Positions 7,650 through 55,850 of a stretch of DNA of 64,000 nucleotides are shown one piece after another (the first letter of the stretch is position 1; each line of letters opens with the position of its first letter). The stretch covers positions 18,087-82,086 of the forward strand of contig CAVUXE010000045.1 of the NCBI GenBank assembly GCA_963745235.1. The letters are read 5' to 3'. A program made the position numbers and the translations under genes. Source of the stretch: an uncultured Spirochaetota bacterium. Its GTDB lineage: Bacteria > Spirochaetota > Spirochaetia > SZUA-6 > Fen-1364. Below the pieces are notes generated by a model, which did no database searches, had not been told where the DNA came from, and saw only the letters and a program-made list of their open reading frames with translations.

Positions 7650-10363
7650 ATGGCGTTTGAAGAAAGGAAGTTCCAGATGAATCAGCGCAATGATGCCTCC
7701 GCGTATCAGCTTCCCCGGAGCGTGGTGCCCCGTCACTACGACATCATGGTGAGGCCGGACCTCACGTCTTTTCGCTTCAGCGGCCGCGTTGCCGTGGAGG
7801 TGGAGGTCCGCGAGCCGGTGGATCGAATCACGCTGCACGCGCTCGGGCTGAAGATCACGGGGGCGCATGTCATGGATAACCGGGGGAGCAGGCGGAATGC
7901 CGTCTCTACCCACGCAACGGTGAGCTTTGTCGACCCCGCGACGGGAGAGGCTCGCGATGAACAGTTCGCAAGCGCGGCCGCAATGGATGAAAAGTCCCAG
8001 ACCGCCACGTTTGCCTTCTCCGCAACCCTTGAAAAAGGCCTCTGGACGCTCACCGCCGAATACGAGGGCAGCCTCGTGCAGCCAGGCCTCGAGGGCTTCT
8101 ACCGCAGCAAGTGGACTGATGAGAACGGGCGCGACCACTGGGCGGCCACGACGCAATTCGAGGCAACCCATGCGCGCCGCGCGTTTCCCTGCTGGGACGA
8201 GCCAGCTGCAAAGGCAACGTATGCTGTGACGCTCGTCATCGACAGACAGCTGACGGCGCTCTCCAACATGCGCGTCACATCGGAGACGGTGGAGAAGGGT
8301 TGGAAGACCATCGCATTTGCGGCGACTCCCCGGATGTCCACCTATCTGCTCGCCTGGTGCGTCGGGGAGTTCGAAAGCTGTGAACCCGCATGGGCCAACG
8401 GAAAAGAGCTTCGCATCTGGTCGGTGCCGGGAAAGAACGCTGCTCAAAGGCTACGCCCTGAAGTGCGCCGCCTATGGCGTGGAATGGTACGAGCGCACGC
8501 TCGGCGTTCCCTATTTCGGCGGGGACAAGATCGACATGATCGCCATCCCGGAGTTCCGCTCGGGGGCCATGGAGAATACGGGGCTCATCACCTACCGCGC
8601 CACGGCACTCCTCGTGGACGAGCCGCATGCCACCGTCTCGGAGCTGCAGCGCGTTGCCGAGGTGGTCTTCCATGAGCTGGCGCACATGTGGTTCGGTAAT
8701 CTCGTCACCATGGCCTGGTGGGACGGTCTCCCGCTCAACGAGTCGAACGCCACCATATTCGCCTATCTCGTGATGGCGGACTTCCAGCCGGAATGGCGCA
8801 TCTTCAACTCCTTCGGGCTGCATCGCGCGGCGGCGTTCGCCCTGGACTCCCTCAACAGCACGCACCCCTGCTGGGCGCCCGTGGGACACCCCGATGAGGT
8901 GGAGCAGAGGTTCGACAAGATCACCTACGAGAAGGGCGGGAGCCTGGAGTTTCAGATCCAGCAGTTCGTGGGCGCCGCTCCCTTCTACCAGGGCATGCAT
9001 GTCTACCTGATGCGTTACAGCCACGGAAACGCAGAGGTCACGGACTTGTGGGATGCGCTGGAAGAAGGTGTGAAACAGGCCGGTGCGGATGTTCCCGTGC
9101 GGCAGATCATGGACGCGTGGTTCCTCTCCGACGGCCATCCGGTTGTGACGGTCTCCCCGTCCAGCAAGCCCGGATTCGTCAGGCTTTCGCAGGAAAGGTT
9201 TGCCTTCCTGGGACAGGGAGAGCCACGCGGGGCAGCTCTGGCCAATTCCCCTGCAGTTGCGCTATGCCGCGGAGGACGGATCTGTCCACCCGCAGAAGCT
9301 CATCTTCGCGGACAGGGAGCGGGAAGTCCCCCTCCAGAAGGGGTTTCGGTACGCGGCCGTCAACGCAGGCGGCTCGGGCTTCTACCGCGTGCGCTATTCG
9401 CCCGAGCTGCTGTCAGGCCTCCTTTCATCACCATTCGAAAGGCTCGAGGTGATCGAGCGATTCAACCTCGTCAACGATTCGTGGGCCTTTGTGCGCGCGC
9501 AGAAAATGGGCTCGGACTCGTACATCGAGCTTGTGCGAACGCTCTGCGCAGAGAGGGACCCGAGCGTCTGGAGCATCATCGGCGGCTCGCTGCAGACGCT
9601 CCACGGCATAACCTCTGGTGAGGACAGGGCCGCGTTCAAGAAGCTCATCCAAGGCCTCGTCAGGCCGGTGTTCGAGGATCTCGGCTGGGCGCCCAAGGCA
9701 GAGGAGTCAACGGCCGCTCGGGAGCTGCGCGGTTCCCTGGCCGCGCTGCTCGGCACGGTGGGGGAGGATGGGGAAGTCCAGAGCGCGGCAGTTGGTCTCT
9801 TCACATCCTGGAAAAAGGACCGCGACTCGGTTGACCCCAACGTGGTTCCCGCGCTCGTCTCGACCCTTGCGTACACCGGGGACAGGGCGCGTTTCGAAGA
9901 GTTCCTGGCTCTTTCCCGCGCGGCCGCCACGGACCAGGAGAAGCTGCGGTTCCTGAGGGCCCTGGGCGAGTTCCGTCTCCCCGAGCTGTTCAAGGCGGCA
10001 ATCGAAATGATGATGAGCGACGTGAAGACTGACGATGCTCCCTACATCCTCGGCGCCTACCTCGTTACAGAGCATGCCGGTCCAGCAACGTGGGAGGCCA
10101 TCCGTGGGAGCTGGGCAAAGATACTGAGAAGGTTCCCGACATCAGGCACGGTGCGGATGATCGAGGGATGCTCTGCGCTGGACACTCCCGAGCTGGCGGC
10201 AGAGGTGGAGCAGTTCTTTGCCCGGACCCGGGTGCCCCAGGGAGACATGGCCGTGGCCCAGATGCTGGAAAGGCTGAGTGTGAACGTGCGCATGCGCAAG
10301 GAAGAGGCGCCGCGGCTCACCGCGTACCTGAAACGCGCCGTCCAGGGAAGGATGCAGGACTGA
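7650..10363 (+). CDS. M1 family zinc aminopeptidase with ERAP1-like C-terminus (two frameshifts ~8440 and ~9230)
   Basis: TQFEATHARRAFPCWDEP, GAMEN, HELAH-18-E, ITYEKGG across three consecutive overlapping frames (7650-8675, 8317-9621, 9200-10363). Confidence 0.93.
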
Positions 10364-12240: not shown

Positions 12241-13179
12241 CTACACGAGCACGCATACCGTCAGCCAGGCAAAGACCACCAGTGGATAGAAACAGGCCAT
12301 GTTGAAGAACCGAAGCGCCTCATCCGGAGTCTGGTGGCGGAGCCAGCGCGACAGAGGTACGAGGAGCAGCGCGATGCCCGTGGCCGCCGCACCGGGAAGA
12401 TAGGCTGCGGTCTGCGGAATCGGAGCCACGAGGGGGAAGAGCAGGCTGAGGACGATGACCGCGGAGACGAAGGCGAAGGAGATCCATGAGGCCGCCTTCC
12501 GGCCGTAGCGCACGGGGACGGTCCTGATGCCGAGGTGCTTGTCCTCTTCCAGGTCGCTCCAGTCGTTGGGAATGTTCCTGCCGCCGATCTCCCAGGCGAA
12601 GGCCCAGGCGAAGAACACGAGGACCATTGCAGGGCGGGGCGCCGGCGTCACCGCCCAGACGCCGGCCAGGCCGCCCACGCCCACCATGAGCCCCGAGAGC
12701 AGCCCTTTCCAGTGGCTCACGCGAAGCAGCTTGCAATAGGCGGTTTCGAGGATGATGGCCCCCAGGAGAAGGCCGGCGCAGACGGGCCGGAGAAGGAACG
12801 CGAGGATGAGGGAAAGCAGGCCCCAGGAGACGACCCAGGCAATCCCCGCGCCATAGCTCAGGCTGTTCTGGGCCAGGGGATGCCGCTGTCCCATCGAGTC
12901 GAGATCGAAGGTTGCGTGGTCGAATCGATACCGCGCCATCTTCTCACGGTCCACCTTCACGTCGATGGCGTCGTTGAGCGCGAAGACGCAGGTGTAGCCT
13001 GCGAAACCGGCAATCAGTCCCATGATGATGGTGCGCACCGACGGCGCGCCTCCGAGGACCACGGCGGCGAGCGCTCCGCCGACCGCCGGATGAGCCACGT
13101 CAAGCACGGAATGCGTCATCCGCGACAGCCCGAAGAACTTCCTGAGCGTGACGACTTCCCGCAACTGCGCTTCTGCCAT
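12241..13179 (-). CDS. UbiA family prenyltransferase
   Basis: Multi-TM; Asp-rich motifs ALNDAIDVKVD and NDWSDLEED...GIRTVPVRYG; AAGGAG RBS before ATG. Confidence 0.9.
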   Translation of the reverse strand: MAEAQLREVVTLRKFFGLSRMTHSVLDVAHPAVGGALAAVVLGGAPSVRTIIMGLIAGFAGYTCVFALNDAIDVKVDREKMARYRFDHATFDLDSMGQRHPLAQNSLSYGAGIAWVVSWGLLSLILAFLLRPVCAGLLLGAIILETAYCKLLRVSHWKGLLSGLMVGVGGLAGVWAVTPAPRPAMVLVFFAWAFAWEIGGRNIPNDWSDLEEDKHLGIRTVPVRYGRKAASWISFAFVSAVIVLSLLFPLVAPIPQTAAYLPGAAATGIALLLVPLSRWLRHQTPDEALRFFNMACFYPLVVFAWLTVCVLV

Positions 13180-13192
13180 GTGACTCTCCTTT

Positions 13193-14157
13193 CTAAACCG
13201 GGACACCCGAGGCGCGGGCCCCGGCCCTGCGCGCGCGGAACATCCCATAGCGGCACAGCCCCCTGCCGAAGGCGAGGCGCATCAACAGGAAGGTGGGGAC
13301 TTCCCGCAGGGACTTGATCAGGCCCACAAAGCCGAAGCGCACCAGGCCTTCGGGCCGGAGGAGCCCCTGCCATATCGACGCCATCCAGGACGGCAGGGTC
13401 TCCGGGGTCCAGTCTGCCGTCTCCACGCTTCCTTCGACAAGCCCTGTTGCACCCAGGAGCTCGGAGAAGCCCTCGATGCTCGAGAAAGCTGGATGCGACC
13501 ACTGATCCAGGAGCTGCCGCATGACCGGCTTCTCCCAGAAGCTCAAGGGCCTGTGGCGATCGTCCCTTTGATTCCAATCCGAGACAACCAGCAGCCCTCC
13601 GGGCTTGAGAACGCGCATGAGCTCTCTCGCAAACACCGCCTTGTCAGGCATGTGCGGCCCCGCCTCGACCGACCACACTATGTCGAAGGAAGCGTCGGGG
13701 AACGAAAGAGCCATGGCGTCGTCCACGAGGAAACGGACGGGAAGCCCCCGCGGCGTCAGCTCCACGGCACGCCTGATCTGGCTCGGGCTGATAGTGACGC
13801 CGGTCACCTCGCATCCATAGTCCCGTGCCAGGATCCTGCTGCTGCCGCCTATGCCGCACCCCACATCCAGGATTGTCGTCCCGGGCTTGAAGCAGTCACG
13901 GCCCCCCCAACGCACCATCTCGTGCACGAAGTCCTCTTTGGCCTTGAGGAAACCCTTGCGCCGGGGGGGGAGCCGTAATGACCCAGGTGGATATGCTCGC
14001 CCCAATAGAACTCCAGGATACCGTCTTCAGTCCACGAGTCGTAGGAATTGGCGACGGTGCTCGACGATTGATAACGGCGGGCCGTCACCGCGTAGGAGAC
14101 TGTAGCGATGGCCACCAGGGCCACCAGCACACAGAGGACCACAAGGAAGGCGGTCAC
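13193..14157 (-). CDS. Cyanobacterial-type MPBQ/MSBQ methyltransferase-like protein (frameshift in G8 run ~13963-13970)
   Basis: N-terminal TM, YDSWTEDGILEFYWGEHIHLGHY, LDVGCGIGGSSRILA, WSVEAGPHMPDKAVFA, WEKPVMRQLLDQWSHPAFSSIEGF, SLREVPTFLLMRLAFG; matches my recollection of Synechocystis Sll0418. Confidence 0.85.
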
Positions 14158-14296
14158 AACGCTGGCTCCTCGACTGTACGGCGCGCGGAATGGTTGATGG
14201 TCACTGTGCTTCCGTTTCAGAAGCCAGTCTACTGCCATTCGACATAGCGTCAAGGCGGGGTCTTCGGTAGTATGTTAGATCCCTGCGGGAGGAAAG

Positions 14297-15067
14297 ATGG
14301 ACGGATCATCCATGGGTGGCGCGGGAGACAAACGATATCCGCCCGTGTCCACCCTCGACGCGAAGCGCTTGACGATGGTGGTCAAGGAAATCTTCTCTTC
14401 GGTGCCTTCAACCTACGATCGGCTGAACCACCTTCTGAGCTTCCGCCGCGACGTGGCGTGGAGACGGGAGACTGTCAGGCGAATGCGCTTCTTCTCAACA
14501 CACGCCTTTCTGGACGTCGCGACGGGCACCGGAGATCTCGCCATAGAGGCCGCGCTGCGAAATCCAAAGGTTGCCGTCACTGGCGTGGACTTCGTTGAGG
14601 CGATGCTCGAGGTGGGGCGGCAGAAGGTTCAGGCGCGGGGCCTCCAGGAACGAATCAGCCTGCGGTATGGCGATGCGCTCGCGCTGCCTTTTTCTGATGC
14701 GAGCTTCGATGTGACTGCCATTGCCTTCGGCATGCGCAACATACCGGACAGGCTGCGCGCGTTGCGGGAGATGGCCAGGGTGACAGCCCCGGGCGGCCAG
14801 GTCATGATCCTGGAGTTCACCTTCGCTCCGGCGCGCGGATTCCGATCGTTGTATGGGTTCTACCTCAGGAGGGTGCTTCCGGGTTTCGCCAGGCTCGCCG
14901 TCCGCGACACTTCCGCCTATCACTACCTTGCGGACTCCATCATGGCCTACCCGGAGCCTGATGCCTTCGACTCCCTCATGAACCAGGCGGGTCTGGTCCT
15001 GGTCCAGCATTTCCCCATGACTCTGGGCACTGTCTATCTCCACGCAGGTCGCACCCCCGGCCCCTGA
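14297..15067 (+). CDS. ubiE: Ubiquinone/menaquinone biosynthesis C-methyltransferase UbiE/MenG
   Basis: YDRLNHLLSF, LDVATGTGDLA, GDALALPF.D.SFD, AFGMRN, YHYLADSI. Confidence 0.9.
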   Translation: MDGSSMGGAGDKRYPPVSTLDAKRLTMVVKEIFSSVPSTYDRLNHLLSFRRDVAWRRETVRRMRFFSTHAFLDVATGTGDLAIEAALRNPKVAVTGVDFVEAMLEVGRQKVQARGLQERISLRYGDALALPFSDASFDVTAIAFGMRNIPDRLRALREMARVTAPGGQVMILEFTFAPARGFRSLYGFYLRRVLPGFARLAVRDTSAYHYLADSIMAYPEPDAFDSLMNQAGLVLVQHFPMTLGTVYLHAGRTPGP

Positions 15068-15153: not shown

Positions 15154-15166
15154 TTTTACTGTAAAA
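15154..15166. promoter_or_regulatory. Palindrome TTTTAC-T-GTAAAA, candidate MarR operator
   Basis: Perfect 6-1-6 inverted repeat in an AT-rich patch abutting the marR ATG. Confidence 0.5.
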
Positions 15167-15630
15167 TGAATGCTCCCGATAGAACCCTGGCGCGAGACCA
15201 GGAGATAGCAAACCGCATCCTGGAGCTTTTCAGAGCGATGAAGCGCTACATCCGCGGCGAGTTCCCGCCCCTTTCCGAGCGGGGAATGAGCGAGGAAAAG
15301 CTTCGCTGCCTGGCGGCCCTTCGGTTTCTCGGGAAGAGCCACCTCAAATCACTGGCCGCCTATGACGGCCTTTCCGCGTCCAGTACCTGCATCATGCTCA
15401 ATCAGCTCGTGCACGAAGGCTTCGTGAGCCGCAGCGATGATGAGGCGGATCGAAGGAACGTCTTCTACGTTCTGACCGACGCCGGCCTCGCGGCCGTGGA
15501 TACGGCGCTTGCCCGGCGAGTCGACTTGCTGTGTGGGAGGCTGGAGAGGTTCGGCGAGACCGAGAAAGCGCGCCTTGCGGGCGCCCTTGCAACGGTCATG
15601 GCGGGAGTCGAGAAGCTCAGAACACCATAG
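15166..15630 (+). CDS. MarR family transcriptional regulator
   Basis: 154 aa; LV.EGFVSR..DEADRR...LTDAG winged-helix signature. Confidence 0.9.
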   Translation: MNAPDRTLARDQEIANRILELFRAMKRYIRGEFPPLSERGMSEEKLRCLAALRFLGKSHLKSLAAYDGLSASSTCIMLNQLVHEGFVSRSDDEADRRNVFYVLTDAGLAAVDTALARRVDLLCGRLERFGETEKARLAGALATVMAGVEKLRTP

Positions 15631-15649
15631 AACGGAGTCAAGCATTCAA

Positions 15650-17140
15650 ATGGGCATGATAAACGACAGATCGACGGGGGAGGGCTACGAATGGGTCGCT
15701 CTCTCCGTCACCACCATCGGCTCGCTCCTGGCATCGATTCAGGGCTCGGCCCTGATCATCGGGCTCCCGGATGTCCTGGTCAACCTGAAGGCGGAGTTTC
15801 TCACGATCATCTGGGTCCTTCTTGCATACCTCCTGGTGACCACGGCCGTCGTCCCGGTGATTGGACGCCTGGCCGACATGTTCGGGCGGAAGAACCTCTA
15901 TAACGCCGGCTTTGCCATCTTCACCCTCGGGTCCCTCCTGGCGGGGCTCGCCCAGGTGCGCTTTCACGGCTGGGACCTGGTGGGCGCGCGGATCGTCCAG
16001 GGGATCGGCGGAGCGCTGCTTTTCGCCAACAGCGCCGCCATCGTCACGGATGCCTTCCGCCACGGGAGGATCGGCCTGGGTCTGGGAGTGAACCAGATCG
16101 CCATTGCGGCGGGGTTCGTCCTCGGACCCGTTGTCGGCGGCCTGCTGACCGCCATCAACTGGCGGTGGATCTTTTTCATCAACGTGCCCCTGGGCGTTGG
16201 CGGAACAATCTGGGGCCTCATGCGCCTGCGGGAGCCGGAGACCCTCCCCGGCGGCCAGCACTTCGACCTCTGGGGAAGCATCACCTTCACGATCGGGATG
16301 GGAGGGCTCCTCATGGGTCTTTCCCTTTTCGCCTTCCCCTCCGGAGCTCCCTTCCTGCCCTACGTGCTGATGGGCGCTTCCATCCTGATCCTCGCCGCCT
16401 TCATCCTCATTGAGCGCCGGGTCCGGGAACCCATGCTGGACTTCGGTCTCTTTCGCCATCGGCTTTTCGCCCTCGCGAACCTCGCCGCGGGGCTGAACGG
16501 GCTTGCGCGCGGGGCCGTGCTCTTTCTTCTGACCTTCTTCCTGCAGGGCCCGTATGGGAAAGACCCCCTCCAGGCCGGCATCCTGACCGCTCCCTTCGGT
16601 CTTGCCTTTCTTGCGGTCGGCCCGTTCTCAGGCTTTCTCTCTGACCGCCACGGCTCGCGGGGCCTGGCCACCGCGGGACTGCTCGTTTCCAGCGTGGGAC
16701 TGCTCGGCCTTGCAACCATCACGTCGAATACCAGCTACCTGCTGCTGGCGGTCTTCATGATCCTGATGGGAGGCGGCTCGGGTCTTTTCAGCTCGCCGAA
16801 TACGAACGCCATCATGTCCTCCGTGGTGGCGGAGCGCCGGGGAATCGCGTCGGCCACGAACATCATGCTGGGGAACACCGGCCAGATGTTCAGCATCGCC
16901 ATCGCTTTCCCCCTGGTCCTGAGCCGAATTCCGCAAAGCGTCATGTACCACGTGTTTCTCTACGGCGGCGGAATGAGCGACTCGCCGGGAGTCCTCCGGG
17001 TCTTCCAGGGCGGGCTGCATGAAGCTTTCATTGTTTCTTTCGCCGTGACGCTGGTTGCCGCGGCCGCATCATTCCTTCGGCCAACACGAGAGACCGCCCC
17101 GGACGCGCGTGATGCGCAGGGTGGATCAGTGCCTTCCTGA
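15650..17140 (+). CDS. MFS efflux transporter (DHA2/EmrB-QacA type)
   Basis: GRLADMFGRK motif A, GARIVQGIGGA, GPVVGG, WRWIFFINVP; ~14 TM. Confidence 0.93.
   Translation: MGMINDRSTGEGYEWVALSVTTIGSLLASIQGSALIIGLPDVLVNLKAEFLTIIWVLLAYLLVTTAVVPVIGRLADMFGRKNLYNAGFAIFTLGSLLAGLAQVRFHGWDLVGARIVQGIGGALLFANSAAIVTDAFRHGRIGLGLGVNQIAIAAGFVLGPVVGGLLTAINWRWIFFINVPLGVGGTIWGLMRLREPETLPGGQHFDLWGSITFTIGMGGLLMGLSLFAFPSGAPFLPYVLMGASILILAAFILIERRVREPMLDFGLFRHRLFALANLAAGLNGLARGAVLFLLTFFLQGPYGKDPLQAGILTAPFGLAFLAVGPFSGFLSDRHGSRGLATAGLLVSSVGLLGLATITSNTSYLLLAVFMILMGGGSGLFSSPNTNAIMSSVVAERRGIASATNIMLGNTGQMFSIAIAFPLVLSRIPQSVMYHVFLYGGGMSDSPGVLRVFQGGLHEAFIVSFAVTLVAAAASFLRPTRETAPDARDAQGGSVPS

Positions 17141-31300: not shown

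Positions 31301-31304
<4 letters not shown>
30593..31304 (-). CDS. livF: Branched-chain amino acid ABC transporter ATP-binding subunit (frameshift ~31140)
   Basis: [42 protein letters not shown]. Confidence 0.92.
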
Positions 31305-32167
<863 letters not shown>

Positions 32168-32200
32168 CCGTTGTCTCGTCCGCCGCGTCTGCCTTCGTCG

Positions 32201-33548
32201 TCATCGGCCCTTGAGCTCGCGCTTGCGCCGCGCCGCGGGAAGGATGCCCGCCGGCCGGTAGATCATCATGAGGACGAGGATGATGCCGAACACCAGGCGC
32301 TGGTACTTGGAGGGGTCGAGCTGGTTGGAGAGGTCCTTCCAGTGGAAGTTGATGATCGGGATCACCGCGTCGCTCTGCCGGAGCTGCGCGAGGAAGAGCG
32401 AGAAGCTCTGCAGCACCTGCAGGTTGAGGAGGGTGACCACCGCCGCGCCGATGATCACTCCGGGGATGCTGCCGATGCCGCCGAGGATGACCATGGTGAG
32501 CACGCTCACCGACTGCGAGGAAGCGTGAAGGATTCGGGGCTGACGAAGGTGCGGCTCGCGGCGAAGAGCACGCCCATGGCCCCGGCGAAGGAGGCGCCGA
32601 CCGCGAAGGCGCCGAGCTTGAGCCTGTTCGCCGGGATGCCCATGGCGGTGGCGGCGAGCTCGTCCTCGCGGATGGCCGCCCAGGCCCGCCCGATCTTGGA
32701 GTCGTCCAGGCGGTACGTGACGATGATCACGGCGACCACCACGAGGACGGCGATGAGGTAGAACAGGATGTTGTAGAACTGGTTGGCCGTCACCGGGTGC
32801 CCGACCAGCGGCTCGAAGAGCGGTTGAAGAAGGCGAGGAGCTCCTGGGCAGGGTCGGCCGCTGGATCGGCGTGATGCCCTGGGGCCCGTTCGTGAGGTTG
32901 AGGGGCTTGTCGAGGTTGTTCGCGAGCTGGCGGACGATCTCGCCGAAGCCCAGGGTGATGATGGCCAGGTAGTCGCCGCGGACGCGCAGCACCGGGCAGG
33001 CCGAGGATGAGGCCGACGATGGCCGCCACGATGATCGCCGAGGAACATGAAGAGGTAGAACCAGTCGGGCGCCAGGAAGAAGGGCGTGCCGGGCGGCGCG
33101 GTGCCGGGTATCGCGTGGAGGAGGAAGGGCTGCTGGGAGCCGAAGAAGCCCCAGAGGTAGGCGCCCACCGCGTAGAAGGCCATGTAGCCGAAGTTGAGCA
33201 GGCCGGAGAAGCCCACCACGATATTGAGGCCCGAGGGCCAGGGCCGAGAAGACCGCGATCTGGAAGATGACCTCCAGGTAGAAGATGTTGCGCGCGCCCG
33301 AGGATCGGCACGAGGACCACCGCGACGAGGACGGCCAGGGCGAGCTGTGCCGGCTTCTTCATGTCGCAGGAAGTAGGCGAGCGACGCTGCCGCCGACGAA
33401 GAGGAGGAAGGCGGGGATGGACCGCGGGCTCAGGTAGACGAGGACGAACCCTGCGGCGATGACAGCGCCGGTCAGCGAGTACGGCGTGGCGCCCCTGTTG
33501 CAGGACGCCGAGGAAGCGGCGCGCCATGTCCCGAAGCGTGGTTCTCAC
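32201..33548 (-). CDS. livM: Branched-chain amino acid ABC transporter permease (multiple frameshifts)
   Basis: [57 protein letters not shown]. Confidence 0.9.
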
Positions 33549-33558
33549 CTCGCACCCC

Positions 33559-34750
33559 CTATGCCTTCTGCGAGACCTGCTCGCCGAGCAGTCCCGAGGG
33601 GCGGAAGATGATGACGATGATCAGCACCAGGAAGGCGATGATATCCTTGTACTCGGACCCGAAGGCGCCCCTGGTGAAAGTTCCGAGGTAGGCGCCCGCG
33701 AAGCTCTCGAGCATGCCAAGGACAATGCCGCCCAGGAGGGCGCCGGTGAGGTTGCCGATGCCGCCGAGGACGGCGGCGGTGAAGGCCTTGATGCCCGGGC
33801 ATGAAGCCGACGAAGGGGTCGATGCGCGTGAACTTGAGGGCGTACAGGACGCCCGCCGCGCCGCCGAGGGCGCCGCCCATGAGGAAGGTGAAGGAGATGA
33901 TCGCGTTGACGCCGATGCCCATGAGGGCGGCGGTGGTGCGGTCCTGGGCCACCGAGCGGATGGCCTTGCCGATCTTGCGTCGCGTTGACGATGTAGTTGA
34001 GGCCGACCAGCATGAGGACGGCCGCGCCGATGACGACGAGCGACTTGACCTGGATGTCGACGCAGGGTGGCGTCCTGCCCGGTCGGGAGGGAGAAGAGGG
34101 GCAGGCGCTTGTCGAAATTGCCGAAGGTCGGGAATGACCCGGTAGAACTGGCCCGTCGTGAGGCTCTCCACGAGGCGGATGATGTCCTGCAGGGCGAAGG
34201 AGACGCCGATGGCCGAGATGAGGGGCACGAGCTGGGGCGAGTTGCGCAGGGGCCGGTAGGCCGTCCGCTCCACGAGCATGGCCATGCCGCCCGCGGCGGC
34301 CATGGCGACCGACGAGGGCGAGGGTGAGATAGAGGTAGGAGCCCATGGGGCCGGCGGCCTTGCAAGCACGCCGAGCTTGTCCATCGCGATGAGGAACTCC
34401 ACGCCCGCGAAGGCGCCGATCGCGAAGATCTCGCTGAATGGGCGAAGTTGATGAACTCGAGGACGCCATAGACCATGGTGTAGCCCAGGGCGATGGCGGC
34501 GTAGACGAAGCCGAGGGTCACGCCGTCGATGAGGACCTGGGGCAGGTTGTTGAGGGTGTAGGCGACGATGCTGACGCCCTGCGTGTCATGGAGGAGCTTG
34601 TCCGCCCCCGAACCCTGCGCAGAGGAGGGCGAGGACGAACATCAGCGCGGAAAAGAGCGCGCCCGCGCCGGCGACGAAGACCGCCATCCTGCCCAGGGGC
34701 AGGAAGATCTCCCGCAGAGCGCGATCCGAGCTCTCATGGATCTTTCGCAT
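33559..34750 (-). CDS. livH: Branched-chain amino acid ABC transporter permease (multiple frameshifts)
   Basis: ALGYTMVYGVLEFINFAH, ERTAYRPLR, KAFTAAVLGGIG, FRPSGLLG. Confidence 0.9.
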
Positions 34751-34810
34751 AGCGAGCCTCCACCCGGAGACCGGGGAACGGAGCGTCTCACCGCATCCTG
34801 GTCCCGAAAG

Positions 34811-34846
34811 GCCCCCGCCCCGCGGAGACTCCGCGGGAGCAGGGGC
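34811..34846. terminator. GC-rich stem-loop between binding-protein gene and livH (terminator or mRNA-stabilising hairpin)
   Basis: gccccc-gc-cccgcggag-a-ctccgcggg-agc-aggggc inverted repeat just 3' of the binding-protein gene. Confidence 0.6.
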
Positions 34847-34861
34847 GAGCAACGGTTGAGA

Positions 34862-36060
34862 TCAGCCACTGCGGAGGAGCGATGTCCAGGGTCTGGTCGA
34901 TCTTGTTGGCCGACCACTTGGCGGGATCTGCCGAGGTGACCTGGATGATGAAGTACTTGGCCTTGGTGAGGTCGCCCTTGGCGTTGAAGTTGATGGTGCC
35001 GGTGATGCCCTTGAAGTCCTTGAGGGCGCGGACCGCCTTGGCGACATCGGCGCGGGCGGGCAGCTTGTTGCCGGCGGCCATCGGCGGCGTTCTCGATGGC
35101 CTTGAGGGCGATGGCCGCGCAGTCGTAGGACTGGGCGGCGAAGGGCTGGGGCTCGGCGCCGAACTTGGCCTTGAAGTCGGTGATGAACTTGGCGGTGCCG
35201 GGGTAGACGCTCGCGGGGCCGGAGACCGTGGAGTAGTAGGTGCCCGCGCCCTTCAGGAGGGCGTCGCCGCCGATCTTGGCGGCGTCGGAGGAATCGAAGC
35301 CGTCGTCGGAGAGGAACATGCCCTTGAAGCCCTTCTGGCGGGCCTGCTTGAAGAGGACGGCGGCCTGGTCGAACATGCCGCCGAAGTAGATGACCTGGGG
35401 CTTGGCGGCGAGGATGGGCGAGAGGATGGAGTCGAAGTTGGCCTTCTCCTCGGTGCCGTCGAAGCCGAGCACCTTGATGCCCGAGCTTCTCGGCCTCGTT
35501 CTTGAAGTACTCGGCGATGCCCTGGCCGTAGGCGGTCTTGTCGTGGAGGACGTAGGCGCGTCTTGATGCCCTTGGTGGCGGCGAACTGGGCGCCCACCGC
35601 GCCCTGGACGTCGTCGCGGCCGCAGACGCGGTTGACTTCCAGCGTAGCCGCGATCGGTGACCTTGGGGTTGGTGTTGGCGGGGGAGACGTTGACGAGGCC
35701 GGCGGCGTGGTACTCCTCGGAGGAGGGGATCTGGACGCCGGAATTGTAGTGGCCGACGACCGCGAGGATGGCCGGGTCGGCGACGATGCTCTTGGCGTTG
35801 GCAACGCCGGTGTCCGGGTTGCCCTGGTCGTCGAAGGGCGCGAGCTCGACCTTGAACCCCATCTTGGCCAGGGGTCCGGAAAGCTGCTCGACGGCGAGCT
35901 GGGCGCCGTTCTTGATGTCGGTGCCGACGGCGGACATGCCGCCGGAGAGCGGGCTCTGGGTGGCGATCTTGATGACCTTGGGAGCGGGGGCTCCGCACCC
36001 GGCGAGCACGAGGCCCGCAAGGGCAAGTATTGCAAGAAAGAGAAAGACGGACTTTCGCAT
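34862..36060 (-). CDS. Branched-chain amino acid ABC transporter substrate-binding lipoprotein (LivJ/K type, frameshifted)
   Basis: Lipobox VLAGC, PLSG, DDQGNP, VVGHYNSG, SPANTNP, HDKTAYGQG, FKGITGTINF. Confidence 0.92.
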
Positions 36061-36399
36061 GGGTTCTTCCTCCTTAGAAGCTGGCTTTGAATCTTGTTTT
36101 TTCAAGACAGGAGCCGCGTGATTCCGGCGCGGATCCCGCTGCGAGGTGGCTGGTCTCTATAGTTCCGGCGCCCCTCCTTCCAGAGTTCGGGCACGTTCCC
36201 TGCCCTGGTCTCATTCACCTGCGCTGCACCGGCGTTCGACGAGCCCGCAGAGGATGCGGGAGTCTAGACGCTGGAGGCCAGGACGTCAAGATTGCGTTCT
36301 ACTCCGCCGCGATGGCCTTCTTTGGACAGCACATTACATTCTTAGAATAATCCCTTCGGGGGCCGAACGGAAAGGATTTTGTCGGGAAGGAGGCGAGCG

Positions 36400-37513
36400 A
36401 TGAGAGAAACCGCGGAACAGGTCATTACCGAAATCGAGATCAGGCGCTTTACCATCCCGTTGCGCGGGTCGGTTCAGATCTCCACCATGAACATGGAACG
36501 CGCGGAGAACCTGCTGGTAAAGCTTGTCAGCAGCGACGGTGTATGCGGCTGGGGAGAAGCATCACCCATGCGGTCCATCACGGGAGAAACGCAGGCGATT
36601 GACCTTGCGGCCGCGGCAGAGCTGAGGACGCTCCTCCTGGGCAGAAACCCGCTGGCCATCGGCGCCTTGTCAGCCTTGATGGCCCGGCATCTCCCTCACA
36701 ATACGACCATCCGAAGCGCGTTCGATATGGCGCTCTATGACATCGCCTCACGGTACGCCTCCATGCCCTTGTACCGGTTCCTTGGAGGGGAGCAACGCGA
36801 CCTGGAAACCGACATTACCATCTATATCGGTGATCCTGGCGAAGCAGGTGCGCGGGCTGAGCAGCTCCTCCGCGCCGGTTTCCGCGTCATCAAGGTCAAG
36901 GTAGGGCTCGATCGGGGAGACGACCTCAAGAGGGTTGATGTGATTCGCCGGGCAATCGGCAAGACGCCGAGACTGCGAATAGACGCGAACCAGGCGTGGG
37001 GCCGGACCGGCCGCCTTGAGCATGCTCCGTTCTCTGGAGGAGCATTCGATCGAGTTCTGCGAGCAGCCCTGCCTTGCCGCTGACCTCAGGACCCTGAAGT
37101 TCCTTTCCGCGAACAGCCCCATCCCGATCATGGCGGATGAATCCCTCTTCAGCCCGCAGGATGCCCTTGCACTGGATCGCGACGATGTCGTGCCCTATTT
37201 CAATATCAAACTGAGCAAATCCGGTGGACTCTACCAGGCCCAGCGGATTGCGCACATTGCTGCCGCGGGCGGACGGGTCTGCATGATAGGAGGCATGTCC
37301 GAGTCCCGCCTGGGAGTGACGGCGGCAGCGCATTTTGCCCTGGCCAACCCGATAGTCGAGTTCTGCGATCTCGATTCTTTCTATGAGCACCGGGACGATC
37401 CGATCCACGGAGGGTTGACCATTCGAGACGGGAAGGTAATTGTCCCCGACGAACCCGGGATAGGCGCCGTGCCGGATGAGTCATATCTTGCATCTCCCCC
37501 CGCCCGCGTATAG
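36400..37513 (+). CDS. Dipeptide (L-Ala-D/L-Glu) epimerase, enolase superfamily (frameshift ~37005)
   Basis: GWGEASP, KVKVG, RIDANQAW, EQP, MADES, NIKLSKSGG, DLDS. Confidence 0.88.
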
Positions 37514-37536: not shown

Positions 37537-40500
37537 ATGGCGTCCAACAAGAGGAAACACACGCGCGTCGATCACCGCGCAGCCGTGGAGCTCACGTCGG
37601 AGTCCTCCATATTTCCCGGTACGTCTGTCAACGTCAGCGTGAGCGGAATGCAGGTGGTGGTCGGACTGCCGGCGTCGTACGATTCGATCCAACGTATTGC
37701 ATTTCATATCCCTGGCTCTGATAAGCGCGTCGAGCTGCCCTGCCGGCTGATTCGCAACTCGGAGCACGACGGTGAAGGTGACCAGGTCCTGGGCCTGGAG
37801 TTTCTCTATGAAGCCGATGCCCAGCTCCTGCTCATAGAGAAGTTCATCCAGGACAGCCAGCCGGGCCGGGACGATGCGCGCCAGCTTCCTCGAACTTCCT
37901 GCCGCCTTGACGATGTCACGGTCGATACCCCCGCCTTTCACGTCCTCTCAATCGACAATCTCTCCACCGAGGGAATGCTCCTGAGCTTTCGCGGGAACCT
38001 GAAAGAAGGGGACGCGCTCGCCATGAGCGTCGGCATTCCCGGCGACGACCGCCGTCTTGGCCTCTCGGGAACGGTCGTCTACGTTGTCGAGAACGTGTTT
38101 CGCGGCTCCCTGACGGCCGGCGTTCGATTGTCGACCTTGAAAGAGACCGAGGAAAGCCGACTCAGGAATCTCATCGTCGCCTGCTCATCAGGGAGCGCAT
38201 TGCGCGGACTGCACGAGCATCTTCATTCCAAGGAGATGGAACCCGAGTCCCGAATTGTAGATCCGGTCCTGATCGGCGACATCCTGCATTCACTGAAAGT
38301 GGAATGCGTTCGATTGAGCACCCTGGTGGAAGGATCTTTCACCATCATCGAGCACGAGCTCGAAGGCGTTGACCTTGGATTGCAGCGGTTTGCAATCAGA
38401 GCAGGCAGCGAGCTTGCCACACGCAGTCTCGGACCGGGGGCGACGGCGTACTTCAGCTTCTATTGGAAGAAGGCCAGCTACTATTTCAAGGCGGTCGTGG
38501 GCTCCGCCCGTGATGATCTCCTCAGGTTTTCCTTTCCGAGCGTCATGTTCCGCTCGGACAAGAGGTCATACCAGAGAAAGCCGCTGGAGAGCGCCTCCCG
38601 CGCAAGGCTCGCAATACGCGGGCATACGTTCGAGGGGACACTGATCGATATCAGCCGCAGGGGGTTTCTCTGCGAGCTTCACCTTCCTGCCGAATCCCAG
38701 GCATTCTTCCAGAAAGGAAAAAGCCTTCACTACACCGTGGATGACAGGCTCGGGCTGGGAAGCGAAGGCCAGATCCGGCACCTGAGAGTGCTGCCAGCGC
38801 CGGAGGGCGTCGTTCTGCAAGTGGGCGTGGAAGCGGGAATCGGGAGAAACGCGGTGCGCTTCCGGCGCATCCCAGCCGAAAAATGGGAAGAAAGAACCTC
38901 TCGCAGCGGCGGCCTCCCGGGTTCTGAACGACGCATCGAGTCTCATTTCGTGCGGTTTCCCGACCGGGCAGGCCATGAGATCTGCGCCCTGCTCAATGCG
39001 ACCGAGCTGCGAGTCAAAGCCCCGGTCGTCATCATTCCTTCCGCGTACGGGAAAAAGAAGGAAGCATTCTCTCCCCTCGTGGCGACTCTGCTCGCGAGCT
39101 TCTGGAGCGAGGGGAGAAACATAGTCACGCTCCGCTATGATGGCGTCAATCGTCCGGGTGAAAGCCATCGGGACGAGATGAACCCGAAGCGCGGGTACGA
39201 AATGCTCACCTACAGGATCAGTCAGGGGCTCGGTGATCTCGAGGCGGCGTTGGATTTCGCGAACGATAACCCATACTTCGTTGCTGAAAAGGTGATCGTC
39301 ATCTCCTTCAGCATGGCCGCCATCGATGTGCGGCGCTTCCTGAGCCGGGATGAAGGCACGGCAATCGACTACTGGGTCAGCGTCATGGGGGTTCCTTGCG
39401 CGCAAACGACTCTGCGCAACATCCTCGGCGGAATCGATATCGTCAGCAACTATCGCCTGGGAATCCCCAACGGGATCATAGGGCTGTTGGGGCATCTGAT
39501 CGACATGGACATCACGGCCGCTGATTTGGTCGACAGAAGGTACGCCTTCCTGACCGACGCGCGCCTCGACATGTCTCGAATCGCAATTCCCGTGCTGTGG
39601 ATCTACGGCCTGTACGACAGATGGGTCGACATCGATGAGGTGAAGGACCTCATGTCGGTCAAGGCGCCGGGGAGACGCGAGATTGTCGAGATCCCCACCG
39701 GACACAACCTGCGCACCAGCGACGATGCCATCGAGACTTTCAAGCTGATCACGGCCTCCATCCATGAGGAGCTCTACGGCACGCGGATAGTGGCCCGAGA
39801 CCCATGGAAGGAGGAGATGATTCGCCTGCTCACCGAGGAGCGTGAGCGTCTCCAGAACAGGGTCGCTCCCCCTCTGACCGAATACTGGCGCGGGTACCTG
39901 CTCGGAAACGAAAGGAATCGCGTCGGCTACGACTTCTACAGGAACATTCCGGAGTTCACCGACTTCCTCAGAACGCAGGCAAAGTGCCTGGCGCTCGGGG
40001 AAGGGGAGATCATTGCCGACCTGGGTTGCGGGACCGGCATTTTCCTGGAGGCGCTGCTGGACTTCATCGCTGAGGCGGGAGCGCGAATATCGGCAAAGGA
40101 GATCATGGCCGTTGACCTCGTTCCGGATGCCCTGGACAAGGCGCGGCAAAAGTGTGAAGACGCTCTTGCCTTGAACCCCCGCCTGCGGAGCATTCACTTC
40201 CAGTACGCGCAAAAGAACCTGGAGCCCAATCGGCTCATTCCCGTTTCGCGCTTCATCGAGTCGAAGGTGCCTTCCCTCGATTCACTGAGGAACAAAATCG
40301 AGGGCCTTTCAGGAAAAGTGCTGGACAGTCTCATAGAACGCGCATCTCCCGACGTGTACGCCGTGATGCGCGGCGGGACGCCGGAGGGGGAGCCCTTTCT
40401 AAGGTTGAAATCGACGCTGCAAGCCGTCGAGCTTCAGACGGTCCTGGAGTTCAACAGGGCGGCCCGATACCTCTTGCACAGGCTCGAGAAGCATGACTTG

Positions 40501-41036
40501 AGACCTGACCGGATTTCGGAAAATGTTTCCCTGGAATGCCTGCGCACGAGCGATCTGGTGTTCGAGAAGCTCAACTTTGGAGACTATGATTCCAATCTCG
40601 GACTGGGCTTGCCCGGCGAACCATTTCACCAGGATCGTCGCAAGTCTCTTCATCTCGTATCTCCATAACCCTGACTACGCGCTTGCCGAATGCTACAGAA
40701 TGTTGAAACCAGGCGGCATCCTCCTTGTCTCCTCCATGAAGCCTGACAGCGACATCTCAATGATGTTCACCAACTATATCAGGAAGACGCTGACCCCGAA
40801 TTGCTCCGAGGATGACGGGATGGAAAATGGGGTGAGCGGCGCACGGGCCATGCTGAATGAGGCCGCCAGTCTCTTCGAGCTGGAAGAGGACGGCTTTTTC
40901 AGATTCTACACGCTCGAAGAGCTGAAAGACCTGCTGGCTGACGCTGGATTCGTTGAGGTCACCGGTGCTTTCTTCCATGGGAGACCCTCCTCAGGCTTGC
41001 ATCGCAGTTGCAAAAAAGACCTTGACAACATCTTAG
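37537..41036 (+). CDS. Multidomain protein: three PilZ domains + LuxD-like alpha/beta hydrolase + class I SAM methyltransferase (frameshifts ~40610 and ~40975)
   Basis: PilZ motifs RKHTR/NVSVSG, RQLPR/NLSTEG, RSYQR/DISRRG; hydrolase LRYDG, SFSMA, YDRWVD, TGHNL; MTase ADLGCGTG and ..SY..NP...L.E.YRMLKPGG in the next frame; corrected end SMGDPPQA..TTS* at 41036. Confidence 0.85.
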
Positions 41037-41088: not shown

Positions 41089-42483
41089 ATGGTTGGAATA
41101 GGGAGAAAGATAGACGAAGCGTTGCATGACTGGGGCGATTCGCCTGCATTTCTTCAAGTCACCCAGGCGAACGGGGCCACTGTCATCCCCTCCATCGCGT
41201 TCTCGCAGAAGATCTTGGAGATTGCGAGCCAACTCCAGGCATGGGGGATCCGAGAAAAGTATCTCGTTCCGATTTTCCTGGGCAACTCGACAGATTTCAT
41301 TGCCATCTTTCTTGCCCTGATTCGCATCGGCGCGATCCCCGTCCTCGCCAAGCTGGACTACCGAACGCTGGAGCTCGACGAAGTATTCGCCAACGCGCAG
41401 CCGCAGGCGGTGATAGCTGAGAAAGAGCACCTCCGGCACCTGTCGCCATACCTCCACAATTCCATCGTTATCGTTCGATCAGGGGATCAGTTCCTGCTGG
41501 AACAGTCCGTCGAGGGCCTGACGCGCCGGGAGGACATTCCCGACGATATCGCGTCCATCAACTATACCTACCGCGGGTACGGGTATCCGCTGGGGGCCAT
41601 GATCTCCCATGACCAGTACCTTCACGGCGCCAGGGTACTGCAGGACGGGCTGCAGGGGTCTGCGGGAGAGAAGATGCTCATTATCCTGCCGATGGCGCAC
41701 ATTTTCACGATGGTAGGATGCGTCCTGGTCCCCTTGCTCTACCGGATGACCAGCGTCATTGTCGATACGTTGCACCCCCGACTTCTCTTTCAATACATTC
41801 GTGATTTCCGTATCGAGCACATCACATCCGTTCCGGAAGTTTACGAGCTGCTCTACCGGCTCCGCGACCCCGCGGTCGACCTTTCCTCACTGAAGGTCTT
41901 TGTGTCGGGAGGCAGCATCCTGACCCCTGACAGCTACGCGAATCTCAAGAGGGCCTTTTCGATCGACCTGCTTCATGGATACGGCCTGACGGAGTTCACT
42001 CCGGTCAGCCGCAACATGCGAGGTAAGTCCCGGTCGGGAACGGTCGGACCCCTGTGTGACCTCGTGGAGTGCCGAATCGACTCTTGCAGCCCCGGCGGGG
42101 CAGGAGAGATCCTGATCAGGACGCCGCATATGACGGGTACGTACTACCGCAGGCCGCGCGAGTCGGCCGAGGCGCACAACGATGGCTGGTTCAGGACGGG
42201 GGACATGGGCCGTATCGATGCGGGACACCTTGTATTCGTGAAAGAGTTGAAGAATACGCGCAAGATAAATGGAAATCTCGTGGACATCGAAGAGGTCACA
42301 CGCGCCCTCAAGCTGGACCCCGATGTGGCGGACGCACAGGTGGGTTGGGAGAGCAACTCCCTGTTCGCGCGGGTCGCGGTGAGCCAGCGCATCGACTTCG
42401 ATGAGAAGGCGAGACGTATGAAGTCCCTCCTCAGAGAGGTCATAGCGGAGTACAAGGTTCCGAAACGATTCAGCGTGCTTTGA
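41089..42483 (+). CDS. AMP-binding (acyl-CoA/acyl-ACP ligase-like) protein with atypical P-loop
   Basis: LPMAHIF, GYGLTE, GEIL, WFRTGDMG, YKVPK; P-loop reads NYTYRGYGYPLGA instead of YTSGTTGxPKG. Confidence 0.85.
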   Translation: MVGIGRKIDEALHDWGDSPAFLQVTQANGATVIPSIAFSQKILEIASQLQAWGIREKYLVPIFLGNSTDFIAIFLALIRIGAIPVLAKLDYRTLELDEVFANAQPQAVIAEKEHLRHLSPYLHNSIVIVRSGDQFLLEQSVEGLTRREDIPDDIASINYTYRGYGYPLGAMISHDQYLHGARVLQDGLQGSAGEKMLIILPMAHIFTMVGCVLVPLLYRMTSVIVDTLHPRLLFQYIRDFRIEHITSVPEVYELLYRLRDPAVDLSSLKVFVSGGSILTPDSYANLKRAFSIDLLHGYGLTEFTPVSRNMRGKSRSGTVGPLCDLVECRIDSCSPGGAGEILIRTPHMTGTYYRRPRESAEAHNDGWFRTGDMGRIDAGHLVFVKELKNTRKINGNLVDIEEVTRALKLDPDVADAQVGWESNSLFARVAVSQRIDFDEKARRMKSLLREVIAEYKVPKRFSVL

Positions 42484-42516
42484 CGAAAGCACCTGCCCTG
42501 AGGAGGGATACGGCAG

Positions 42517-42792
42517 ATGGGCAATGTGCAGGAAAACTGGAACCCGGATAAGTTCAAGAAGGAAATCAAGCAGATCGTTTCGAAAATTTCCCGAATCGAA
42601 GCAGCGGATCTGGAGGACCACCTTCTGATTCGCGAAGAGCTGGGAATCGACAGCCTGATGGCAATGGAGATTATCGCCACCTGCGAAAAGCTCCTGCGAC
42701 TGAAGATCGACGAAACACTGTTCGGTGAAATACAGACTGTCGGAGACTTTCTTGACCTTCTCGTAACGCTCTCAGGGCGGGCGGATGCGTGA
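42517..42792 (+). CDS. Acyl carrier protein
   Basis: 91 aa, acidic, ELGIDSLMAMEI phosphopantetheine site, IQTVGD; GAGGAGG RBS. Confidence 0.92.
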   Translation: MGNVQENWNPDKFKKEIKQIVSKISRIEAADLEDHLLIREELGIDSLMAMEIIATCEKLLRLKIDETLFGEIQTVGDFLDLLVTLSGRADA

Positions 42793-55464: not shown

Positions 55465-55526
55465 CGCCGACTGCCGGCGAGCTGTTCGCGCCGGCGAGCC
55501 AGCGGTGCCATAGCGAATCCAGGGCT

Positions 55527-55850
55527 TTACGATGGTCCAAAGATCTGCACGAGCTTTGTCTCACCGTCGCCGTAGAGCCGTCTCATGTTCGTGACCCACT
55601 CGATGGCCTTCTCCTTGGTGTCCACCTGGATGACGGTGAAGCCGGGTATGAGCTCCTTCGCCTCCAGAAAGGGGCCGTCGGTGATCGAGACCTTTCCTTC
55701 GGTCAGGTGGATCCTGGTCTCCTTGGGATGGAGTCCGCCGCCCGTAACAAGGATTCCCTTCTTGATGGACTCCTCCATGAACTTCCCCAACTCGGCAGGG
55801 TCCCGAGGCTGCTGCCTCTCCGTTGGGGAACCGTAGACAAAGAATTGCAT
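55527..55850 (-). CDS. YciI/DGPF domain protein
   Basis: GGLHP...TDGPFLEAKELIPGF. Confidence 0.9.
   Translation of the reverse strand: MQFFVYGSPTERQQPRDPAELGKFMEESIKKGILVTGGGLHPKETRIHLTEGKVSITDGPFLEAKELIPGFTVIQVDTKEKAIEWVTNMRRLYGDGETKLVQIFGPS

Follow-up and report, generated by a model that had tools for sequence, protein, structure and literature searches.

The 64,000-nucleotide stretch of an uncultured soil Spirochaetota bacterium analysed here (the window) carries a gene for a methyltransferase (MT) of the PlqQ/Sll0418 kind, which lies directly upstream of a UbiA-superfamily prenyltransferase gene and faces a divergent ubiE/menG gene. On balance we favour a reading in which this MT was acquired laterally, works from a UbiA operon facing UbiE in the synthesis of a plastoquinone (PQ)- or methyl-plastoquinone (mPQ)-like respiratory quinone, and is interrupted in this assembly by a single-base gap that is an assembly error. 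The role described for Sll0418/PlqQ itself is C5/C6 methylation in PQ synthesis (PMC11874023; PMC12998194; here and below we draw on parts of these papers). The features concerned are these:

13193 to 14157, minus strand: PlqQ/MpqQ (Sll0418)-type class I S-adenosylmethionine (SAM) C-methyltransferase, 321 aa in its intact form (from open reading frames, Pfam and identity).
13967 to 14157 and 13193 to 13966, minus strand: N part and C part of the MT, in two reading frames as assembled.
13963 to 13970: homopolymer at the frameshift, G8 on the plus strand and C8 on the coding strand (from DNA alignment).
14226 to 14253, minus strand: promoter-like site TTGACG-16-TAGACT upstream of GTG 14157, a consensus match only.
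12241 to 13182, minus strand: lineage-specific UbiA-superfamily prenyltransferase, 313 aa (PF01040, 101 bits).
14297 to 15067, plus strand: UbiE/MenG-family C-methyltransferase (PF01209, 197.8 bits; TIGR01934, 227.8 bits against a cut-off of 158.35).
15166 to 15630, plus strand: MarR regulator, downstream of UbiE (Pfam).
15647 to 17140, plus strand: major facilitator superfamily (MFS) transporter, downstream of the MarR gene (Pfam).

The MT belongs to the cyanobacterial PlqQ family. A search with the C part of METHYLTRANSFERASE (257 aa) gave 3496 proteins at E<=1e-10 among 5681 candidates, the best 120 of which are 77-95% identical to it. Among these best 120 matches, 27 bear the JGI name 'MPBQ/MSBQ methyltransferase' and 31 have an NCBI organism name, 30 of them cyanobacterial (including Nostoc, Anabaena, Calothrix, Leptolyngbya, Limnospira, Gloeomargarita and one Candidatus Caenarcaniphilales) and one 'Nitrospira sp.'. 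The window MT is 77-82% identical to cyanobacterial "MPBQ/MSBQ methyltransferase" (Sll0418/PlqQ-type) proteins. Its identity to the 30 named cyanobacterial orthologues, which stand in this comparison for Synechocystis Sll0418 and N. inopinata MpqQ themselves, has a median of 78.0% (range 76.8-80.3) and so falls in the range found among those 30 proteins (median 78.7%, range 73.8-99.4). The class I SAM domain is present with its family-invariant residues: Methyltransf_11 scores 84.8 bits, the SAM motif DVGCGIGG is visible in the translation, and the window agrees with the 30 cyanobacterial rows in 144 of the 151 covered columns in which these do not vary. The 321-aa length and the hydrophobic N-terminus are likewise shared with Sll0418/PlqQ, and ingroup and outgroups separate at a support of 100/100. 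The MT reaches no NCBIfam model, and a PDB search returned generic methyltransferases only.

The first-pass annotation, which had been made from the letters alone, listed a place among generic methyltransferases as one outcome that would speak against its claim. The family proves to stand alone instead: in a search of 1.84 billion proteins clustered at 50% identity, each cluster being represented by one sequence, a few fragments were followed by one full-length protein at 59%, and the next nearest representatives fall to 44-46%. The Sll0418-type identity therefore stands as a family assignment made through the 30 cyanobacterial orthologues, with the reservation that the gene is frame-broken in this assembly. 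The spirochaete MT also differs from Sll0418/PlqQ in that its host is a non-phototroph (no photosynthesis genes were seen among the open reading frames scanned in the window) and in its setting within a UbiA operon facing UbiE, whereas cyanobacteria are described as lacking C2 methylation of PQ (PMC11874023). As an observation on the same family, one PlqQ-type protein (P0056, 79% identical) bears the label Candidatus Caenarcaniphilales. This lineage of Cyanobacteria is non-photosynthetic, and Plq homologues are reported missing from it in the part of PMC12998194 drawn on here; because the contig of P0056 is only 1.8 kb long, the label is possibly a case of mis-binning.

Related loci came from a UbiA-based scan of species-representative genomes, which returned 12 loci. 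Of the 11 real relatives, 10 have Spirochaetota, Spirochaetia or Rectinemataceae in their titles and one is called 'uncultured bacterium'. The remaining locus, from a metagenome-assembled genome (MAG) of Aminicenantes, was rejected as a 46-residue chance-level match. Compared by tblastn for an MT directly upstream of UbiA, they gave the following identities to the window proteins:

L001: MT 84%, UbiA 82%.
L003: MT 80%, UbiA 74%, divergent UbiE 73%.
L010: MT 76%, UbiA 71%, divergent UbiE 68%.
L011: MT 86%, UbiA 84% and 81% (two pieces), divergent UbiE 80%.
L004: MT 84% over 159 aa at a contig end, UbiA 58%.
L002: MT degenerate, UbiA 80%.

The link between MT and UbiA that had been proposed is borne out by their common strand, by the recurrence of the pair in these relatives and by a gap of 10 nt (the MT stop TAG at 13193-13195 is followed by AAAGGAGAG and then by the UbiA ATG at 13182). 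UbiE is divergent from the pair, 139 bp from the MT start, and was correctly recognised as a divergent ubiE/menG; orthologues of 68-80% identity hold the same divergent position in L003, L010 and L011. Downstream of UbiE, and on its strand, L003 and L010 have genes for a polyprenyl synthetase, NuoB and a fused NuoCD; in L008 a NuoL-type gene comes after UbiA. The best NCBIfam model for the polyprenyl synthetases of L003 and L010 is solanesyl diphosphate synthase (142 bits, below cut-off). In three relatives the MT-UbiA module is bordered by transposase genes, which belong to the Mutator, IS66 and IS91 families (L001:525-1760, L002:8359-10542, L011:7447-8940), and it may move within the lineage.

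As assembled, the MT occupies two minus-strand reading frames that overlap in the list of open reading frames. Frame A (13849-14253) contains SWTEDGILEFYWGEHIHLGHYGSPP and ends at a stop 38 codons after it, and frame B (13193-14005) takes over with RRKGFLKAKEDF and carries IVWSVEAGPHMPDKAVFA, WEKPVMRQLLDQWSHPAFSSIEGF and REVPTFLLMRLAFG along with the whole Methyltransf_11 domain. All four motifs quoted for the repaired protein by the first-pass annotation were found in these translations, SWTEDGILEFYWGEHIHLGHYGSPP in frame A and the others in frame B. DNA alignment with the intact genes of L001, L003, L010 and L011 shows the window gene to be exactly one base short in the C8 run at 13963-13970, which is the longest G/C homopolymer of the window. 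The repaired start at GTG 14157 and the 321-aa product that had been predicted are right, because the 63 residues from GTG 14157 align, as residues 1-63, to residues 1-63 of P0001 (321 aa), with 60 of 63 identical. The promoter-like site at 14253-14226 fits this start (the consensus scan gave 2 sites against 0.6 expected), and a terminator scan gave no more sites than shuffled sequences did.

The single-base gap is most likely an assembly error in the homopolymer. The competing explanation is that the MT is a true pseudogene in this organism, part of a decaying module that methylates nothing any more, and this deserves the most serious consideration of the alternatives even if we judge it unlikely. 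The broken frame as assembled is what such an explanation predicts, and decay has touched relatives: the L002 homologue, which adjoins IS66 genes, lies in three frames and has lost ~130 residues including the SAM motif, and L007 has a UbiA with an internal stop and a mere remnant of the radical SAM gene discussed below. We nevertheless hold an assembly error to be likelier because at least five other genes of the window are frame-broken and both halves of the MT are under purifying selection. Comparison with four relatives gave the C part a ratio of nonsynonymous to synonymous substitution rates (dN/dS) of 0.11-0.18 and the N part one of 0.23-0.37; UbiA has 0.15-0.26 and UbiE 0.15-0.21, so that the C part does not exceed either neighbour. 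There is but one break, exactly in the longest G/C homopolymer; neither half has an in-frame stop; the 144 of 151 cyanobacteria-invariant residues are still in place; and an intact 321-aa protein, P0001, is 95% identical to the window MT. The same type of defect is seen in the locus of a related long-read MAG, where the L011 UbiA is split over two frames.

The further breaks number at least six in five unrelated genes, which suggests an error-prone assembly. In an M1 aminopeptidase each of the three domains is in a frame of its own (7650-8675, 8254-9618 and 9149-10360), an enolase-superfamily gene is split into 36346-37080 and 36983-37510, and livG, livM and livH are each split (31304-34641). 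Homopolymers were considered as the cause of these breaks and rejected, since the sites have runs of 4-5 or none. The homopolymer argument is therefore valid for the MT alone, and the other breaks show only that the assembly, or the genome, is break-prone. The gene at 53158-55560 was considered as an N-terminally truncated UvrA, a reading that was rejected: it is a complete UvrA-like paralogue of ~750-762 aa and was excluded from the break count. UvrA models match this ~760-aa protein only from position 266, and it has hundreds of homologues of 747-776 aa.

Two phylogenies bear on the origin of the MT. A quick-search tree of 136 rows (the window C part, 5 locus proteins, 120 matches, P0242 and 9 outgroups) placed the window in a clade of 22 rows with a Shimodaira-Hasegawa-like approximate likelihood ratio support of 99, and this clade includes all five spirochaete locus proteins. 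This group, delimited once the first tree had been seen, has 6 rows of known origin among its 22, namely those of the window and of the five loci. A second, careful search used 58 of the 136 rows (the 22 of the clade, the Nitrospira row, the 30 with cyanobacterial names and 5 outgroups; 73 further ingroup rows and 5 long-branched outgroups were left out). It recovered the clade at 100/98, adjoining a Synechococcales sequence (92/74) within a larger group (92/97) to which Phormidium, Limnospira, Gloeomargarita and the Nitrospira row do not belong. The nesting within Cyanobacteria that had been expected is thus seen in the maximum-likelihood tree. It is not established, because an approximately unbiased (AU) test in which the 30 cyanobacterial rows and the Nitrospira row were held together with the spirochaete clade outside them gave p 0.53, the tree being 1.03 log-likelihood units better; the clade may instead be the sister group of the cyanobacterial sequences in the sample, which are the best matches of the query and leave the deep lineages out of the tree. 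Joining the spirochaete clade to the Nitrospira-labelled row costs 38.4 log-likelihood units, with a borderline p of 0.047 for a group named after seeing the tree.

Since the spirochaete clade lies in or beside the cyanobacterial sequences and apart from the single Nitrospira match, the trees point to a lateral acquisition separate from that of Nitrospira. We favour Cyanobacteria as the source because of the identity range, the published spread of PlqQ in cyanobacteria (40 of 71 genomes, including Gloeobacterales; PMC11874023, supplementary information (SI) part 7) and its patchy presence in spirochaetes. As a lead from an atlas look-up, the 59% outgroup P0242 falls among Cyanobacteriota-dominated clusters. 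Of the horizontal acquisition originally proposed, then, the placement within or beside cyanobacterial sequences and the identity range hold, and nesting within the donor group is not significant.

The product of the module is most likely PQ- or mPQ-like. No decarboxylase or hydroxylase gene was seen in the window, and for this reason we infer the product from the family and setting of the enzymes. According to this view, the MT gene would have become fully adapted to the base composition of its host after the transfer, and its translation would now be coupled to that of a spirochaete-specific UbiA, with the gene of a putative UbiE-type C2-methyltransferase lying back to back with it. UbiA would put a polyprenyl tail on an aromatic head group, which presumably is also decarboxylated and hydroxylated; by analogy, the PlqQ-type enzyme would then methylate the ring at C5 and C6 and UbiE would add a methyl group at C2. 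The resulting PQ- or mPQ-like quinone might serve a respiratory chain that contains complex I. There is experimental precedent for such a combination in E. coli ubiIF mutants, in which N. inopinata MpqQ and, weakly, Synechocystis Sll0418 gave PQ8, as well as mPQ8 when combined with UbiE (PMC11874023, SI part 7; PMC12998194).

The nearest parallel is found in Nitrospirota, which make mPQ and in which MpqQ, a PlqQ homologue nested in cyanobacterial sequences, is reported from 7 of 62 Nitrospira genomes (PMC11874023). Like the MpqQ of Nitrospira sublineage II, the spirochaete MT is a cyanobacterial-type C5/C6 enzyme that a non-phototroph with a UbiE-type C2 methylase appears to have gained laterally, and the predicted product class, PQ/mPQ, is the same. 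The two differ in phylum and in clade, as judged on the one Nitrospira-labelled match rather than on N. inopinata MpqQ; the spirochaete UbiE is below the cut-off of the MpqE model; and the genes are clustered in the spirochaete, whereas in Nitrospirota they are described as not colocalised except in Leptospirillum (PMC11874023). The mpqA-mpqC-LFE_2124-mpqE cluster of Leptospirillum (PMC11874023) likewise brings a UbiA-type prenyltransferase together with ring methyltransferases, and it shares with L005, L006 and L009 an slr0320-like B12 radical SAM gene, which in those loci is directly upstream of UbiA. The window differs from it in having no ubiC homologue, in having a class I MT in place of the radical SAM protein and in a UbiA that is not recognisable as a 4-hydroxybenzoate prenyltransferase.

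Several observations weigh against a PQ/mPQ-type pathway built on a laterally acquired MT. Beyond the base missing at 13963-13970, which leaves the MT without an intact reading frame, the real decay of the L002 homologue and the AU result on nesting, one concern is UbiA. Its membership in the superfamily is clear (PF01040, 101 bits against 34.2, with the Asp-rich motifs NDAIDVKVD and DWSDLEED visible), but it reaches no NCBIfam cut-off (best score 63 against 269), scores 48.8 on TIGR01474 against a cut-off of 275.45, matches no characterised subfamily and has one weak match in the PDB, a DGGGP synthase (E 3.6e-7). An atlas look-up, again as a lead, puts it nearest to clusters commonest in Thermodesulfobacteriota. 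UbiE scores 180.4 on the MpqE model NF052510, below the cut-off of 335, and in the window it is followed by the MarR and MFS transporter genes, which have no match in any related locus, rather than by nuo genes. Within the 64-kb window we found no ubiD, ubiX, ubiB, ubiC, ring hydroxylase or hppD gene, no UbiB-type kinase (MpqB) and no other Plq protein (UbiC, UbiD, UbiX or UbiH-like), the Q-type enzyme alone being present. Finally, a survey of 26,264 genomes placed the PQ pathway only in Cyanobacteriia (PMC13386864, as given in the part drawn on here). The corresponding part of PMC11874023 likewise has no mPQ outside Nitrospirota among 482 genomes.

The fact that UbiA fits no classified subfamily also leaves room for a different substrate of the module, a naphthoquinone or some other aromatic compound with a prenyl tail. 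In this case UbiA, UbiE and the polyprenyl synthase would carry out late menaquinone steps, in which the same three activities occur together, and the MT would have taken on a new substrate; UbiE does score similarly on demethylmenaquinone methyltransferase models and on others. The likeness to the late menaquinone steps (MenA/MqnP, MenG/UbiE, polyprenyl synthase) extends to the clustering of a prenyltransferase with UbiE and to the polyprenyl synthase of L003 and L010, and it breaks down at the enzymes themselves. By NCBIfam, the window UbiA has no match to any MenA model and scores 25-38 bits on MqnP models, and an additional PlqQ-type methylase has no role in those steps. Moreover, L002 encodes a distinct MenA-like protein (157.5 bits on NF004749, where the cut-off is 277), together with its own second UbiE (45% identical to that of the window) and polyprenyl synthetase beside the module, so the module's UbiA cannot simply be equated with the menaquinone prenyltransferase. 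The first-pass annotation had named production of menaquinone alone as an outcome that would refute its claim, and a UbiA that is not a MenA speaks against that outcome. A change of substrate class seems improbable as well, given the ~78% identity and the 144 of 151 invariant residues retained. To our knowledge, a prenylated naphthoquinol offers no free activated ring carbon to a class I SAM methylase, and we consider a naphthoquinone-directed module rather improbable. The arrangement in L002 is itself worth describing: polyprenyl synthetase, second UbiE, MenA-like prenyltransferase, decayed PlqQ-type gene, UbiA of the window type (group A, below) and IS66 genes stand side by side in L002:594-6936, and ~130 kb away on the same contig (L009) is a group B UbiA with a radical SAM partner.

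Alternatively, the product may be a non-respiratory methylated prenyl-hydroquinone, such as an antioxidant of the membrane, akin to tocopherol precursors and derived from homogentisate. In vitro, methylation of MPBQ, a precursor of tocopherol, by Sll0418 has been reported (PMC12998194), and synthesis from homogentisate would proceed without the decarboxylase and the hydroxylase that we did not find in the window. The absence of hppD and of a tocopherol cyclase from the 64-kb window and the score of only 25 bits for UbiA on the homogentisate phytyltransferase model count against such a product, and the complex I genes adjoining the module in L003, L010 and L008 point to a respiratory role; we regard the antioxidant as a poor candidate beside a PQ/mPQ-like respiratory quinone.

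With respect to the host, four of the 120 UbiA matches listed have organism names, and all are Rectinemataceae or Spirochaetia MAGs. The UvrA-like marker at 53158-55560, 40 kb away, has its named best matches in Spirochaetia at 90% and 84%, with other named matches at or below 71%. Nitrospirota were considered as the host and rejected, as the UbiA matches, the related loci and the UvrA-like marker all point to Spirochaetota/Spirochaetia. The high identity of the MT to cyanobacterial proteins might have raised the suspicion of an assembly chimera or of cyanobacterial contamination at this locus, which we think scarcely credible, given that the GC content at third codon positions of the MT (0.80) resembles that of its neighbours, that regional GC, at 0.64, fits the rest of the window (0.56-0.67) and that the same junction to a spirochaete UbiA recurs in five further MAG loci from several assembly projects. 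The first-pass annotation had raised a cyanobacterial or chimeric contig as a threat to its claim, and these data and the distant Spirochaetia marker speak against both.

A possible extension of the PQ/mPQ reading comes from loci in which the MT is replaced. The UbiA tree (35 rows, quick search, rooted on the MenA-like protein of L002) separates group A, with at least 71% identity and including the window, from group B, with 55-60% identity and a clade support of 100. The group B loci of interest are:

L004:1-1624: PlqQ-type MT upstream of UbiA.
L005:4481-6891, L006:4521-6894 and L009:4438-6927: radical SAM gene upstream of UbiA.
L007:5640-6888: remnant of the radical SAM gene.

In L005, L006 and L009 a B12-binding radical SAM gene lies directly upstream of UbiA, and its best NCBIfam match is the slr0320 family NF045585, with scores of 301-325 bits (cut-off 775) that are far ahead of the ~115 for the family in second place. 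The order in L006 is histidine kinase, radical SAM, UbiA, LacI, iolG, iolG, iolD and iolE; in L007 only the last ~100 residues of the radical SAM gene remain. L004 has a UbiA of the same subclade (support 95) and the same downstream LacI-iol genes (LacI 83% identical), but a PlqQ-type MT upstream, and it shares with L006 and L007 the locus X-UbiA-LacI-iolG-iolG-iolD-iolE. From this gene order it looks like the PlqQ-type MT and the slr0320-like radical SAM protein have been swapped in place, in which case both enzymes may do the same job. If they do, this would explain two puzzles from published work, namely why PQ is kept in sll0418 knock-outs and why MpqQ is missing in most mPQ-producing Nitrospirota.

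Such an equivalence would bear on a wider problem, for most producers of mPQ and PQ are without MpqQ/PlqQ (PMC11874023, SI) and the identity of their C5/C6 methyltransferase is described as unresolved in most cases (PMC11874023; PMC12998194). A radical SAM candidate has been tested before. LFE_2124, the B12 radical SAM protein encoded beside mpqA and mpqE in Leptospirillum, is ~40% identical to slr0320 and gave no product when tried in E. coli as an alternative methylase (PMC11874023, SI). An slr0320 mutant, for its part, shows impaired QA-to-QB transfer, with a hint at PQ methylation in the part of PMC8065906 drawn on here. We suggest as a hypothesis that the spirochaete loci may lend independent synteny support to the idea of an slr0320-like methylase. 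More tentatively still, soil Spirochaetota might be a third phylum with a PQ/mPQ-type high-potential quinone, and these loci may also identify an alternative C5/C6 ring methylase.

The window has a B12 radical SAM gene of its own at 42785-44104, which was examined as an slr0320-like candidate and rejected, with 30-32% identity over ~120 residues and HpnJ-like as its best NCBIfam match (115 bits). It is the last of a row of genes (41089-44104) for an acyl-CoA/AMP ligase, a small PP-binding carrier protein and the B12-binding radical SAM protein that may be a lipid or natural-product modification cassette.

The enzyme family, its C5/C6 activity and the transfer from cyanobacteria to Nitrospira are already in print (PMC11874023). 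What appears to be new is the spirochaete host, the tight MT-UbiA operon with a divergent UbiE, a UbiA of no known subtype and the alternation with an slr0320-like radical SAM protein. In the papers examined, one of which names Spirochaetota in a figure legend only, we found no earlier report of a PQ-type quinone or an Sll0418-type enzyme in spirochaetes, or of a quinone from Rectinemataceae. The main texts of PMC11874023 and PMC12998194 make no mention of spirochaetes, and the SI of PMC11874023 names one only as a surveyed genome classed as UBP6 in GTDB. In the parts of PMC13386864 and PMC11874023 drawn on here, PQ-type quinones are reported only from Cyanobacteria and, as mPQ, from Nitrospirota. 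If our interpretation of the PlqQ-UbiA-UbiE module beside complex I genes is correct, PQ-type quinones would extend to a third phylum and the cyanobacterial methylase would have been transferred a second time, independently. This would also matter for the question of how the spread of high-potential quinones accompanied that of aerobic life. The way in which PlqQ alternates with an slr0320-like protein would at the same time offer a concrete handle on the open C5/C6 methyltransferase question.

Three further regions of the window caught our attention. At 32001-36000, over the broken liv-type ABC transporter operon, GC content reaches 0.67 and GC skew rises abruptly to about +0.15, against values within about +/-0.09 elsewhere. 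A 1043-aa protein encoded at 37537-40668 combines PilZ domains with a weak methyltransferase-like stretch, and an 899-aa SNF2-family helicase at 59501-62200 has sub-threshold matches to the defence-system helicases DrmD and ZorD.

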